64,000 nt of DNA from Glaucostegus cemiculus (lineage: Eukaryota). Positions 2,330-28,745 of this stretch are shown here, in pieces. Where the stretch lies: positions 124,001 to 188,000 of the forward strand of contig CDPCPM010000479.1 of the NCBI GenBank assembly GCA_976551045.1. The letters are read 5' to 3'. The position numbers and the translations under genes were made by a program. The notes under the pieces were generated by a model. It searched no databases and had not been told where the DNA came from. It saw only the letters and a list, made by a program, of their open reading frames with translations. The first letter of the stretch is position 1; each line of letters opens with the position of its first letter.

Positions 2330-2860
2330 CTCTTCCCAAGCAGCTGTCAAACAAAGAAATTCAGCAAAACCAAACTTCCATCGCCTCATTAAACTCAGCA
2401 GCCACGGACGACATGTTCCGCCATCAATACAAGTTGTTTTGTGTCAGTAATTTGCAGTAAAAGTCTGATCGAGGGCCTGTGGAGACTGGGGAATCGTTAG
2501 CGCTCCAGGAGCGGCTCTGCTCCTAATTGGAAGCATTGGGCATTATCAACTGAGGATTTTCCTGGATCCCTGACAGCTACCGGTGCTGGAATGATTGCCC
2601 ACTTGTCAGTGTAAAAGACCATTAAAAACAAACAATTTTTCTTTAATTGGAGGCTTGCGCTCGGAGCCCAGGTGAGAAGCCTCATCACTTTCTTTGGGCC
2701 TATTGATGATTATGGCTTACTTCAAAATCTGTCTAACAAAATTGAAAGGTTTTTCTTCTCACACTGGAAAGTGTTTTCAATATGACTACAAAAAGCTTGG
2801 CAGGTGATTTATATTTTTTTCCTACAGCCTGCAAGGCCTTGATTAACTATCTGTATGTTC
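2330..2860. promoter_or_regulatory. Candidate conserved non-coding element (enhancer)
   Basis: Repeat-free, complex sequence retaining CpGs, with clustered CAGCTG/TGTCA, ACAAAG/AACAAT (Sox), CATCAAT/ATTGATG (TCF-like) and TAATT sites. Conservation is inferred, not measured. Confidence 0.45.
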
Positions 2861-3741
2861 ATACCTCGACTAGAATTGTTAGGCTTCAAAACCGATCAGT
2901 GTTATTGAGGTGTGCACACCAAACTGAGCCAGTTTGATTCCATAGCTGGTTTCAGGAGCCAAATGGAGGATTACTGAATTGACCCTAAGTATAAAACAGG
3001 GCCCTTGGGTAGATGGTCTCTTCAGTTGGCTTGTGCTCCTTGACACCTATTGCCTTCCTGGTGAGTCAAACAAGTGAAGAATGCATCGTTCTGACCGACG
3101 TGCTGAATTTCCTAACCTCAATCATTCCGGTGAAATTACTAGGAGGGAACCAAAAACTTGGGGTGAAAATTAAATGAATGCTGGCTCCAAATTGACAGAG
3201 ACGTGGAGGGCGCTTGTTTACATCCAACCGGACTCGGTTCCCTGCAGCTGATTTTTTTTGGACCAACACTGGTCACCGTAGAAAATAAATTAGCGGTTTT
3301 GGTGCCAAGGTGCAAAGGTATGTAAAAATGCTATCACTTTGAGAAAATTATGCAAAAGGCAGTTAAACAGATTTACTGTCACCAAAAAGAGATTGACACC
3401 AAAAATTAGATGCCTAAGACACCAGCTGCTATTGCTAGAGTGTGCTTTGTAAATTCCATAATTGGAAAACTAACAAGTAACAGGCAGTATCAGTTAAGTG
3501 GTGTACAAGCATGAATGTTTATGACTGGGGTAAAGATGCTGGTTTTACAATTCATGATTATAACCCCTTTTAAGCACAATGAAAGTGCTGCTGGATCAGT
3601 GCAGAACCACATTAGTGGCGCATACATTCTGGTTGTCTTATTTCAAGCTGACAATTGGCACCTCATTCCAAGTGCAAGCTTGTTAGCAGCATGCAAAGAA
3701 AATCAAGGTTTTCGATGAAATTGGAAAGTGCCACTTTCGAT

Positions 3742-7399: not shown

Positions 7400-7745
7400 G
7401 GACTGAAAGAAAGAATTTATTGGCCTCAGTAGGAGTGCAGTATGGATTCGCCAAACTCTTACAAGTGTGCCTTTTGTTTGATTCTGAAGAGAGATAAACT
7501 AAGCTTGTATTCCCTGGAATATAAAAGGTTATAGTTTCAGTTTTCAGGATTTTGAAAGGAATTGATGGAGTAGGTAGAGAGAAACATCTACTACTGGTGG
7601 AATATTCCAAGGCAATGAGACATGACCTTAAAAACAGAGCAAGGACTTTTAAGTGAGAAATTATAAAACAATTTTTCAGGCTTATGTTGGAAGTATGTAA
7701 ATATCTCCCACAAAAAGCAGCACAATTAATAATTTTAAATCAAAG
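7400..7745 (+). mobile_element. Degraded CR1 LINE ORF2 C-terminal fragment
   Basis: ttggcctcagtaggagtgcagtatggattcgcc...ttttcaggattttgaaaggaattgatggagtagg...catgaccttaaaaacagagc are typical CR1 3' coding motifs. Confidence 0.55.
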
Positions 7746-8949
7746 AGTAGCTTTGTGAGATGTCATTCACAAACAATCAAGTTGTTTGACAACTTTGAGT
7801 GCTATTTCAGTTTGGGGGTGTGATTTCACCTCGTGCTAAAACATTCTTTTGGGATTTATGATCAGAAGGTTGTGTGTTGCGTGGGATCTTGCTGATCCAA
7901 GAGCTAGCTTTGCTGAGAATGTTTTCTCCCCAGTATCTCTGGCTTAAAGCCGTTTGCTGCTCTGAGGAAATCCCAGGCCATTCTAATTTCAACAATCACT
8001 TTTGAAAAGAAACCACCTTTGAAAACAGATAAAGGCCATTCGACCCCCTGGCTCTGTGCTGTCATTCTGTGGGAACGTGGCCAATCTGTTTTAATTCCAT
8101 CCTCCACCTCTGCACAATATCCTTTACCGAAACACCTGAACAGCAAAAATCTCCCACCCAAATCTGAAATTATTAATTGCGCTAACAGCTAGTATTGAGG
8201 GAAAGAGTCAGATATTTCCAAGTTACACCTGAAAAATTGTTTTCCAGCTTCTCTCCTTACTGTCCTGGCTGTGATCTCAAGGTTACATCCTATTGTCCAG
8301 GACACCTCCACCAGCAGGAAACATTTCTCTGGATCTGTTCCTTCAATTCCTTTCAAACACCAGTTGTAACCTTTTATATCCTAGGAATAGAAACTTAGTT
8401 TATCTCTCCTTGCAACTTAGCTTTGGTAAGGCCAATATATCCACTTATAAGGATCATTTCCCAGAACCATGTGCATTATAACCAGAGCCTTATATAGCTA
8501 TAGTTTGTCACTGGAGGGCTAAAGGCTAGGGGAATCAGTCTGCTCCTGGACTTGGAATACATGAAGATTTACACAAGCTTCATACTTGGGCCCACATCTA
8601 TGTATTTTGCATTTGGTATATCAAAGCAGCTTTGGTCACAGAACCAAGAATCACCTGTTGAAGCCAATTTGCTTGGTATAACCAGTTTTGGTCATTGATA
8701 CTTCTGGCTGTTTTTACTTGACACCCTTGGGAAATACCTTGTTTTTTTTTATGTTAAAAACATTAACACAAGTTGCAATTACCAACAATTACAGCAAAAA
8801 TACAACAGCCCTCCAATTAACTGGCTGCTGTGTTCTGAGTTCCTAACCATTCCTGCATAACATTATCCCTTTTCCTTGAGCTACCCATCTTAATCTCGTG
8901 TTGACATGCTCCCTGCTACAACTCTCTAAGTAAATCCTTCTAATCTTTG

Positions 8950-9356
8950 TGTCATGATTCTGAGTACTGGCCCTTGATTTGGTTCCTTGGATGCCTCGTT
9001 GTACAGCACATGGATTCCATGCTGGACCGATTGCATAATGACACACACCTGAGCCCCATCAGGGGCCTAGCATAAGTACCTGGGTTTCTCTAGCACTAGT
9101 TGCCAGGGGATTGGTCAACCTTTGGGTATACTTTGACTCCTAGCTGCTTAGAGTGGTCTACTCTAGAGCAGTCCTGCATTCTCTAGTCCTGCTTGAAGAT
9201 TCAGTTTGGGTTGGGATTACTACTCAGATTGCTGAGGCAAGATTCCTTCCAGTGTTGCCTGTGTCTGGTCCTGAGGAAGTATCCTGACTCCAGTCTTGTA
9301 CCAGTGTGCTGCATTTGGGTTCTCTGTGAGCTTGCTCTTCAATCAACATTGTGACA
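8950..9356 (+). mobile_element. Solo LTR (Gypsy-like), copy 1
   Basis: 407 bp with TGTCA...TGACA termini and a 5-bp TSD CTTTG (8945-8949 / 9357-9361). A close copy lies at 28303-28709. It has a TATA-like cataagta and a polyA-signal-like aatcaa near the 3' end. Confidence 0.88.
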
Positions 9357-10890: not shown

Positions 10891-10947
10891 GAATTTTCAC
10901 ATTTATTTCTTTTAATGATGCAAGAAACTGTAATAATTATTGGCTTC

Positions 10948-11838
10948 TGTTACAAAGTAACTTACTACCGGCAAATGTCCCTTTAAAACGGACATTTTGT
11001 GTGTGTGTGCCTATAAGAACGTATTACATCAACAGAAGATAAGATGAACGTGATGAGGTCAGTAAGAGAAAAAAGAAAAAAAGAGAAGAGAGAGACAAAC
11101 AGATGGGAGACAGACGGCAGTCTATTTTGTTATGAAACCAGCAACAAAAGAAACACACCAAGTCATAATTCAGTGTTAAAACTACTTTATTAATAACTAC
11201 TTCCAATAATATGTAAAATAAGAACAAAAAGTTAGTATATTAGTACAAAAAAAAGTTAGAATCCTGAACTCTAACCCCAAAAATTACTCGTCGTGTGTGT
11301 GTGGCAAATTCCTAAACTCCAAGTCCAGGAATTAGTTCTTATAGTTCAGTTCAGTAAGCCGTAAGATGAAACATGAGTAAAGGCTTCTTCACAAGCACCG
11401 TCCACCGAAGACAAAACATACAGAGAGCTTAGAGAGGAATCACAAAATCCGAATGTTCCACTCAGAGTTCAAATGACACTTCAGGGCTTACTCGGTAGTG
11501 ACTTTCTCACCCTGAAAACTCCTGGATCATGACTGTCCACGCAAACACCTGTGTTCTTCTACAGGTTACCGACGAAGTGGACTCCACTGGACTACTCCAG
11601 AAATCCATCCGTGGATTGTAGTGACAAACACAGTTAGTGTCCTTCATCCATCGACAGAAACAAAACAGGCTGCCGTCTCTCTCCTGTCTGTTTGTCTCTT
11701 CTCTTTTTCTCTTTTTTCTCTTAATGACCTCATCACGTTCATCTTATGTTCTGTTGACGTAATACGCTCTTATAGGCGCGCACACACAAAATGTCTGTCT
11801 TAAAGGGACATTTGCCAGTAGTAAGTTAATTTGTAACA
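10948..11838. mobile_element. 891-bp non-autonomous element with ~180-bp terminal inverted repeats (LTR plus inverted 5' copy, or Ginger-like MITE)
   Basis: TGTTACA...TGTAACA termini. Arms 10948-11131 and 11659-11838 are about 90% reverse-complementary by manual alignment. 4-bp TSD CTTC (10944-10947 / 11839-11842). No coding capacity. Confidence 0.88.
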
Positions 11839-12185
11839 CTTCCAGTTAGAAATCTTTGAAAATCTATCTGATTTTTATTGTTTAATTTGTAAGCATAAAT
11901 TTATTTTTTTTAGACTGAGAGGTGATCTCACAACCCCTCAAAGTGCTCTACAAAACAATGTCAAGAAAACTGATGCAGAGACACAATATTGGGGTACATG
12001 GTCAGAAGTTTGGTCAGAGGGGATTAAAAAACATTTTAAGGGAGGAAGGAAACACAGATGTAGAAGTTTAGGGAGTTAATTCCACAGTTTAGGATCTGAA
12101 TGACGGCATTTATGGTTGCAAGTGGCGTGCAGATGCAACTCAGGGGTGAAACCAGAATTAGAGGAGTGGAGATATCTCAGAAGGT

Positions 12186-12526: not shown

Positions 12527-12767
12527 AGTGATTTGGTTGGAAGAGGTTACAGAGGAGCAAAACTATGGAGGGATTTGAGAACAAGAAAGTGAATCAGAAA
12601 AGTGAGGTGCTGTTTATCCAAAAGCCAATTTTGTTCAGCAAGCAATGGGCTGATAGGTGTGTGTGTGTGTTAGGAAATGACCTCAGATTTACAAAGAGTA
12701 GAATGAGGAAGCCTGGGCAGGAACATGCTGGAAGAGTCCAGTCCTGAGCTAGCAAGGGCATTGATGA

Positions 12768-13476
12768 CGAGGCAGTAGAGAAAGTTACAAGCTTCAAATT
12801 CCTGGGGACTCACATCACTGAAGACCTCTCCTGGGGAACTCACTCTACATTAAGCATCAGGAAGGCGCAACAGCGTCTGTACTTCCTACGGCAGCTGAAG
12901 AGTGCAAACTTGTCAACAGGCATCCTGGTCAATTTCTATAGGTGTGCGATAGAGAGCATCCTGACATATGGCATCACTGCCTGGTATGCCAGCTGTACCA
13001 ACAAAGAGAGGAAAGGCCTACAGCGGGTGATTGACACGGCACAGAAGATCACAGGGGTGCGCCTACCCGCATTGGTGGACATTTATGAGTCCCGGTGTCT
13101 GAACAAGGCTACAAACATCATTAAGGACTCTTCCCACCCGGCCCATCACCTCTTCAGTCTGCTCCCCTCAAAGAAACGCTTCAGGACATTCCACACATCC
13201 ACGGCCAGATTGAGGAATAGCTTCTTCCCCAACGCCGTGAAAATCTTAAACAAGGACTTTAAATTTCACAGATTGCACTAGTTCTTTCTCGCTTCTTCTC
13301 TCTCTCCCTCTAATACGTCAAGTAACCCTACAGTGTAAACTCTAACTTAATTTATTCTCTATTTATTTAATATTTAAGTACTGTGCCTATTGTCTGACAT
13401 GGGAGTGCCAATGAAATCTCGTTGTTCTGTTGTCTCAACGGCTCAATGACAATAAAGCAATCTTGAATCTTGAGTC
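12768..13476 (+). mobile_element. 5'-truncated Rex1/Babar-like LINE
   Basis: Open frame EAVEKVTSFKFLGTHITEDLSW...KAQQRLYFLRQLK...FYRCAIESILTYGITAWY...SHPAHHLFSLLPS..R.R.....RLRNSFFP, stop at 13281. The 3' end has aataaa plus a (tcttga)n-type tail. 7-bp TSD TTGATGA (12761-12767 / 13477-13483). Confidence 0.88.
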
Positions 13477-28097: not shown

Positions 28098-28745
28098 AAA
28101 ACCAAGTAACCGCAGATGTCAGAAAGCCAAAATAAAAACAGAAGATGCTAGAAATCTTCATCAAATCAGGCAGCACCTGTGGGGAGATAAACAGAGTTAA
28201 CATTTCAGATTCTTGGTCTTTCACCAGATGAAATTTAATCAGATGATCTGAACATCAGCTTTGTTTCTCTCCCCATCAATGCTGCCAACTGCTGAGAACT
28301 TCTGTCATGATTCTGAGTACTAGCCCTTGATTTGGTTCCTTAGATGCCTCGTTGTACAGCACATGGATTCCATTCTGGACTGATTGCATAATGACACACA
28401 CCTGAGCCCCATCAGGGGCCTAGCATAAGTACCTGGGTTTCTCTAGCACTAGTTGCCAGAGTATTGGTCAACCTTCAGGTTTACTTTGGCTCCTAGCTGC
28501 TTAGAGTGGTCTACTCTAGAGCAGGCCTGTGTTATCTAGTCCTGCTTGAAGATTCAGTTCGTGTTGGGATTACTACTCAGATCTCTGCGGCAAGATTCCT
28601 TCCAGTGTTACCTGTGTTCGGTCCTGAGGAAGTATCCTGACTCCAGTCTTGTACCAGTGTGCTGCATTTGGGTTCTCTGTGAGCTTGCTCTTCAATCAAC
28701 ATTGTGACAACTTCAGTGTTCCCTATTTTGATTTCACAATGTGTT
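28098..28745. mobile_element. Penelope pLTR hairpin disrupted by the solo LTR at 28303-28709
   Basis: Left arm aaaataaaaacagaagatgctag...caggcagcacctgtggggagataaacagagttaacatttcag. The right arm ...gctgccaactgctgagaacttc|LTR|agtgttccctattttgatttcac resumes after the LTR. Confidence 0.65.
28303..28709 (+). mobile_element. Solo LTR (Gypsy-like), copy 2
   Basis: 407 bp, TGTCA...TGACA, 5-bp TSD ACTTC (28298-28302 / 28710-28714), colinear with 8950-9356. Confidence 0.88.

Follow-up and report, generated by a model that had tools for sequence, protein, structure and literature searches.

The unit at positions 10948–11838 of the window (the whole 64,000-nt stretch analysed here) belongs, as an old and dead copy, to a frequent class of by-products of reverse transcription. 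It is a complete LTR capped by an inverted copy of its own U3 end, inserted as a whole within a single TSD. That such inverted units with two U3 ends form a recurrent class in this genome, neither a MITE nor a one-off, is well supported. We consider it probable that they derive from PBS-less strong-stop DNA of a Gmr1-like Gypsy element, which reverse transcriptase would have extended by jumping templates and which was integrated as an LTR-only unit. The jump between templates is likely, as judged from the integrated fossils.

The window unit and its parent element

The window unit was 891 bp long, started with TGT, ended with ACA and had CTTC on both flanks (10944–10947 and 11839–11842). Its features were as follows.

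10944..10947, plus strand: left TSD copy, CTTC (from the sequence; a single copy in the relatives' empty site)
10948..11123, plus strand: inverted cap, a second copy of U3 nt 1 to ~176 and thus the second U3 integrase end (from alignment to its own LTR, 16 substitutions)
11124..11127, minus strand: AAAT spacer between U5 and PBS, the junction point and putative uncut strong-stop end (the spacer precedes the PBS at 3,484 LTR ends)
11124..11131, plus strand: junction homology of 7/8 bases between the LTR right end and U3 nt 173–180 (same junction at three other loci)
11128..11838, minus strand: complete 711-bp LTR of the short length type, Gmr1-like Ty3/Gypsy (40 scored copies; gag-pol in L061 and L065)
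11186..11191, minus strand: AATAAA polyadenylation signal, the poly(A) site probably lying near 11171 (poly(T) junctions elsewhere run into this position)
11839..11842, plus strand: right TSD copy, CTTC (from the sequence; empty site in relatives)

In an alignment of 184 columns, the inverted arms (~180 bp) differed by 16 substitutions and a single 4-nt gap. The inner 711 bp (11838–11128) formed a complete LTR without a TSD of its own, flanked by AAAT on one side and by the TSD of the unit on the other, and the AATAAA was located at LTR nt 648 (window 11191). On re-reading and alignment, the initial annotation was correct in all these respects: coordinates, termini, arm length and divergence, CTTC duplication, polyadenylation signal and an inner LTR lacking its own TSD. 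It had also joined the two parts through a TGTT microhomology, and this did not hold. The attt at 11124–11127 reads AAAT on the LTR strand, and AAAT is the four-base spacer between the 5' LTR and the PBS throughout this LTR family. Minus-strand DNA begins directly after the tRNA primer. Linear DNA of the family should therefore end in CA-AAAT, and integrase would be expected to cut it after the CA. The join in the window lies after CA-AAAT, the putative uncut DNA end just before the PBS. At the join, the LTR right end (AACAAAAT) matched U3 nt 173–180 at 7 of 8 positions.

The empty site was found in assembled contigs from run X3 (organism B) and run X9 (organism C), which belong to two studies. 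In both, position 10943 was joined to 11839, so that 895 bases were skipped and four letters fitted on either side. With the whole unit and one CTTC missing from two related organisms, the TSD is confirmed and the unit is a single insertion. The initial annotation had suggested looking for an empty CTTC site in relatives, and here it was found; its idea of a solo LTR converted at a later time is unlikely, given this site and an inner LTR without a TSD. A contig across the window junction was not found in the source-like runs X1 and X2.

Between the cap and its own LTR, 12 of the 16 differences were transitions, 7 of them at CpG. The window arms were among the most diverged of the units measured (7.9% over 140 nt). 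The cap had 7 of the 12 rare variants of the unit's own LTR, and was slightly closer to locus L006 (6.1%) than to that LTR (8.9%), as expected once both window arms have aged. The window copy appears to be old, without sign of later movement. It carried terminal inverted repeats together with a TSD, as MITEs do, and contained no host RNA.

Three other features were recognized in the window. An old inverted pair (7551–8357, 163 nt, 71%) was unmatched in the fetched loci. A 300-bp repeat (8947–9246 and 28300–28599, 93%), also found in L209, L232, L137, L189 and L022, seems to be a young dispersed short element. A 177-aa open frame (12748–13281) presumably resembles the C terminus of a reverse transcriptase of LINE type.

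Searching the own genome with the window unit gave 10,173 candidates, of which 40 were scored. Nearly all matched the inner LTR part only, with 86–91% identity. Solo LTRs bearing a 4-bp TSD of their own were common among the family copies, while other copies flanked an internal region, with gag-pol, PBS and PPT in L061 and L065; the LTR origin proposed for the inner 711 bp is thus confirmed. The parent element had direct LTRs with TG...CA ends, a PBS after the 5' LTR, a PPT before the 3' LTR and a short TSD. In L065 the domain order was SCAN, zf-CCHC, Integrase_H2C2, rve, SH3, RVT_1 and RT_RNaseH, with the integrase upstream of RT and RNase H. We take this order to mark the Gmr1-like Ty3/Gypsy group, to which the window LTR is assigned by domain order. 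The PBS is presumably that of tRNA-Pro.

Exact patterns matched 13,106 LTR right ends in the genome, and in 3,484 of these AAAT and the PBS came next. Of 14,582 left ends matched, 3,031 had the PPT before them. There were two LTR length types (~711–740 and 820–840 bp), which differed by an internal duplication; the window LTR is of the short type. The two LTRs of a full element were 0–7% apart (7 pairs), and 13 of 14 control solo LTRs had their own TSD. A deletion of internal nt 2607–3399 (reference) recurred in L138, L232, L236, L239, L241, L264, L275 and L302, and these copies appear to form an amplified deleted subfamily.

Inverted units across the genome

An LTR end with AAAT and then a base other than T occurred 564 times, compared with 339 for eight control 4-mers (42 each), a 13-fold excess. 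The search pattern required an intact AAAT, and eroded ends lie outside these counts. A further 391 LTR ends continued with AAATT and then departed from the PBS, some of them being mutated PBSs. The first 90 of the 564 loci, taken in contig order and not as a random sample, were classed by eye. Thirty-seven were inverted units with two U3 ends and one TSD; 30 joined non-element DNA without a TSD; 11 were copies of one duplicated junction; 7 were chance TSDs, nested insertions or PBS variants; and 5 were inverted but TSD-less, partial or unchecked. By comparison with these 37/90 loci, none of 20 control LTR ends had an inverted arm (p = 1e-4). Nine of 30 AAATT loci were also TSD-flanked inverted units. 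Scaled to the genome, this gives ~350 inverted units, or 3–4% of the insertions with an intact end, a rough estimate that is probably low. In a first set of junctions, chosen by similarity, all eight kept the AAAT, two with a base change nearby.

The 11 copies of one junction shared their flanks on contigs C1, C3 and C24 (L035–L040, L043, L044, L046, L047 and L270), and seem to belong to a larger duplicated unit. The main junction hotspot was observed at LTR nt ~202 of the long type (L055, L123–L125, L203, L262, L265, L266, L268, L273 and L281). Six of the ten solo inverted units of the last batch ended there, just before CAGT, and the hotspot may be the U3/R border.

Measurement of 53 inverted units gave an exact 4–5-bp TSD in 49, a TSD with one mismatch in two and none in two. 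The two arms of a unit differed by a median of 0.7%, versus ~5% to other loci, a divergence similar to that between the LTR pair of a full element. In 32 of the 53 units, no other locus came as close to an arm as its partner did, and there were 7 ties. This comparison left out L003, L070–L074, the duplicates, L053, L149, the units with a broken left LTR, the TSD-less full-length L114 and L197, and the batch L262–L281. The similarity of the arms indicates that each unit arose on its own, with both arms from one parent. A doubled U3 piece inside one TSD was seen in L158 (both arms) and L211 (one arm). L277 was rejected as a full element with an inverted arm, because the arm was a separate solo LTR.

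Sequences joined to the spacer and competing explanations

Thirty-nine LTR ends ran on into six or more further T. We read 30 of these poly(T) ends: in 18, the next bases were CAG, the complement of the element RNA's expected end, and in 12 there were at least 7 bases complementary to the sequence right after AATAAA. A run into poly(A) after AAAT was found in 0/90 loci. In L184, the AAAT was followed by antisense 28S rRNA. L117 had ~215 bp of antisense EGF-repeat coding sequence between inverted LTR ends, with the TSD GCAC; the insert corresponded to two exons of contig C14, and the GT-AG intron of ~80 bp was absent. At least five paralogous EGF-repeat exons, the source of this insert, were clustered at 14.58–14.78 Mb of C14 (L252–L258), in what we take to resemble an LDL-receptor-family gene. 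L179 carried a host RNA end between two LTR-AAAT ends, with a poly(A) longer than that at the source locus; it was rejected as a spliced copy, the gap not being GT-AG and the two pieces joining at a short homology. L180 contained a whole tRNA-Glu, antisense to the other arm, which ended in AAAT too.

Among five loci, ARAGORN recognized a tRNA at L180 only, and Rfam gave no identification of the partial tRNA copies at L154 and L070. They may be tRNA-Ile and tRNA-Pro, with end points perhaps at stops on methylated bases. In L070, L205, L212, L170, L176, L181, L185, L186 and L190, more sequence lay between the 18-nt PBS and the junction, presumably more of the primer tRNA. L196 and L060 joined exactly at the PBS end.

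All RNA-derived pieces read beside AAAT (poly(T), rRNA and two host RNAs) were antisense, and in at least some cases the LTR end appears to have been extended on RNA. Three of 40 junctions, including that of the window, could not be scored for overlap. In the other 37, the overlap was 0–1 nt in 21 and 3–8 nt in 3, and there were extra or unmatched bases in 13. These overlaps and the antisense inserts would fit template jumping by reverse transcriptase better than end-joining.

A PPT and an internal region before the AAAT-bearing LTR were found in one of the 37 TSD-flanked units (L278). The corresponding numbers were 6/20 for the controls (p = 0.006), 8/30 for the TSD-less AAAT ends (p = 0.008) and ~28% genome-wide (p = 7e-5). 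The window unit and the other 36 units, all of them integrated fossils, had neither PBS nor internal region on the AAAT side. This suggests that most AAAT-side LTRs never had an internal region, as later recombination should not single out the TSD-flanked class unless inverted arms speed deletion. L278 had a full element and a cap inside one TSD, and the unit L026/L066, with a one-mismatch TSD, a full element on the AAAT side. These two units indicate that the ends of full-length cDNA do the same too.

L278 also speaks for a different origin, in which host end-joining (NHEJ or polymerase theta) fused an uncut U5 end to a broken cDNA, integrase used both U3 ends, and LTR–LTR recombination later deleted the internal region. 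Patchwork junctions with extra bases exist, solo LTRs are common in this LTR family, and the inverted arms might have hastened the deletion. However, 36 of the 37 units were LTR-only, whereas the 30 TSD-less AAAT ends were full-length at the background rate. In addition, end-joining should give both directions, and the RNA-derived pieces beside AAAT were antisense. We regard this origin as unlikely, though it is the best placed of the alternatives.

The 30/90 AAAT ends that join non-element DNA without a TSD need a second route. For part of this class, the likely one is one-ended integration followed by host repair, a model described in PMC5041404. In L119 (/L152), the right end of a solo LTR continued into 83 bp duplicated from the left flank, with 98.8% identity. 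In L048 (1502–2312), a solo LTR with AAAT had been inserted with no target duplication or loss (contigs of X3 and X7). Among 26 TSD-less loci, with the upstream flank searched over 160–800 bp, a long target duplication was clear in one (L119) and a satellite in another (L130). Applied to the inverted units, the same route would have integrase insert the U3 end and a host polymerase extend the free U5 end on nearby element DNA. According to PMC5041404, an aberrant end can join more viral DNA in either orientation. A direct 4–5-bp TSD at two precise U3 ends is not expected from such events, yet 49 of the 53 units have one, which makes this a very improbable source of the class. For the window it is refuted by the exact TSD, which the empty site confirmed.

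The initial annotation had offered, as one option, a non-autonomous family bridging LTR elements and Ginger-like transposons. A MITE or Ginger-like DNA transposon family derived from an LTR would have the TG...CA ends, long inverted arms and 4-bp TSD seen here, and could account for recurrent junctions (four loci like that of the window; 12 distinct contexts near U3 nt 202). The TIRs of Ginger 1 resemble LTR ends, as stated in PMC3601003. Against this, the 53 units ranged in size from 886 to 5,704 bp, and their ends are those of an RT-encoding element. The window's junction pattern was present at only four loci, with different TSDs and in two LTR length types, and the three of these compared were 5.4–7.3% apart. 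Loci sharing a junction were 3.3–7.4% apart, and random pairs had a median of 5.9% (49 loci). Same-junction loci are thus as distant as random pairs, showing no amplified composite family. We see almost no room for a transposon family, and the copies of the junction no longer speak for a mobile composite, as had been suggested. The annotation's other option, in which an aberrant cDNA carrying two U3 ends was integrated as a whole, was supported and extends to a recurrent class. A single-copy junction had been equated with a one-off rearrangement; each event is indeed single, yet the process left hundreds of loci.

Autointegration, in which integrase would insert the U5 end, in opposite orientation, into U3 of the same element, has known inversion products (PMC7197481). 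Its products are circles without free ends, integrase joins at CA while the junctions here retain AAAT after the CA, and the poly(T), rRNA and mRNA inserts are left unexplained; we find it scarcely credible. A rearrangement after insertion, or an assembly artefact, could be suspected from window arms that are 8–9% apart, above nearly all other units measured, and from source-like runs without a spanning contig, but is highly implausible, as there is an exact agreement between the TSD and the empty site of two relatives, an artefact should show identical arms, and the differences are mostly transitions, with CpG changes as age predicts.

A proposed template jump by strong-stop DNA and its relation to known systems

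The strong-stop reading involves four steps. With the tRNA primer gone, a second PPT-primed plus strand would stop at the end of the minus strand and be displaced, as is established for Ty1 and Ty3. The 3' end of the displaced strand would then pair over 0–1, sometimes 3–8, bases with another 3' end in the particle and be extended. Possible acceptors are a U3 piece, the poly(A) tail or a fragment of the element RNA, another strong-stop DNA, a tRNA, an rRNA or a host mRNA, and several jumps could take place in succession. Copying would end at the U3 start and the other strand would be filled in, resulting in DNA with two U3 ends. The insertion of this DNA by integrase in one step, with a 4–5-bp duplication, is shown by the TSDs and the empty site.

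In the window, the strong-stop end AACAAAAT would have paired at U3 nt 173–180 and been extended back to the U3 start, giving the cap. The acceptor would be U3 near nt 176, either on other plus-sense DNA or RNA, or on the same strand by fold-back, which the near-complete match allows. A nascent plus strand jumping in the reverse sense would give an identical product.

Much of this is known in parts: Gmr1-like elements, PBS-less strong-stop DNA in Ty3, reverse transcriptase switching onto mRNA and, by title, cell-derived inserts at LTR ends. The element shares with the Gmr1-like Ty3/Gypsy group an integrase before RT, a SCAN domain in gag, TG...CA LTRs, PBS, PPT and a 4-bp TSD. It differs in that an estimated ~3–4% of its intact-end insertions are inverted two-U3 units. 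Dunn, Olsen and Swanstrom (1992) are said, by their title, to have described LTR-associated cell-derived inserts in unintegrated retroviral DNA. Such host sequence at LTR ends may come from the same jump, in that case retroviral and unintegrated, and the overlap with our findings may be larger.

For Ty1 and Ty3, a review (PMC5371799) describes how a second plus strand, the tRNA having been removed, terminates at U5 without a PBS and is then displaced. According to this review, the dead-end strong-stop DNA accumulates in particles. This is the PBS-less, U5-ending strand that we infer for the window class. In that account the surplus strands are dead ends; here they were apparently extended on other templates and integrated into the germ line with TSDs.

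The aberrant HIV-1 and ASLV integrations (PMC5041404) resemble L119 and L048: where integrase has left an end unused, that end is either extended or linked to DNA of the virus or the host. Such integrations involve a single integrase end and the short TSD is lost, whereas the inverted units have two U3 ends and a normal TSD. In LTR-mediated retroposition (Tan et al. 2016, PMC5131818, main text), reverse transcriptase switches to host mRNA at short similarities, and the product is integrated with LTR ends. There, the retrocopy lies inside a discontinuous element; here, an antisense RNA copy starts from the U5 end and lies between inverted LTR ends. Host RNA flanked by the element, the mark of that process, is present between inverted ends in L117 and L179 and absent from the window unit. 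The terms "inverted", "strong stop" and "solo" do not appear in that main text. Ginger 1 and MITEs (PMC3601003) share with our units the inverted ends starting with TGT and an integrase-type TSD. In contrast to these, no unit shows a sign of having moved again as DNA, and every unit looks newly made by reverse transcription. In the literature searched, whose coverage of subscription and older papers, repeat-database reports and supplements was incomplete, we found no account of integrated, TSD-flanked two-U3 inverted LTR units as a regular product.

If the template jump is true, lone end-repeats and captured host RNA would have an overlooked source, the RNA being taken up as antisense inserts between inverted ends. 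The usual view takes solo LTRs for products of recombination and gauges DNA loss by them, which would be partly wrong if LTR-only DNA integrates directly. Reverse-transcription intermediates, which until now have mainly been deduced from yeast particles, are recorded by these units in the germ line, with hundreds of dated events. Each unit amounts to a preformed inverted repeat from which double-stranded RNA could arise upon transcription, the window unit having a z of −23 versus shuffles, and repeat annotators could misfile it as a MITE. Yeast Ty3 would allow a direct test of the predicted jump of PBS-less strong-stop DNA between templates. More tentatively, strong-stop DNA may itself be a mobile substrate, inserted without the internal region, so that some of the thousands of solo LTRs were never full elements. 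Through jumps to RNA 3' ends it might also enclose tRNA, rRNA and spliced host mRNA within inverted integrase ends, and might be a source of TIR-like units from which Ginger-type transposons could arise.
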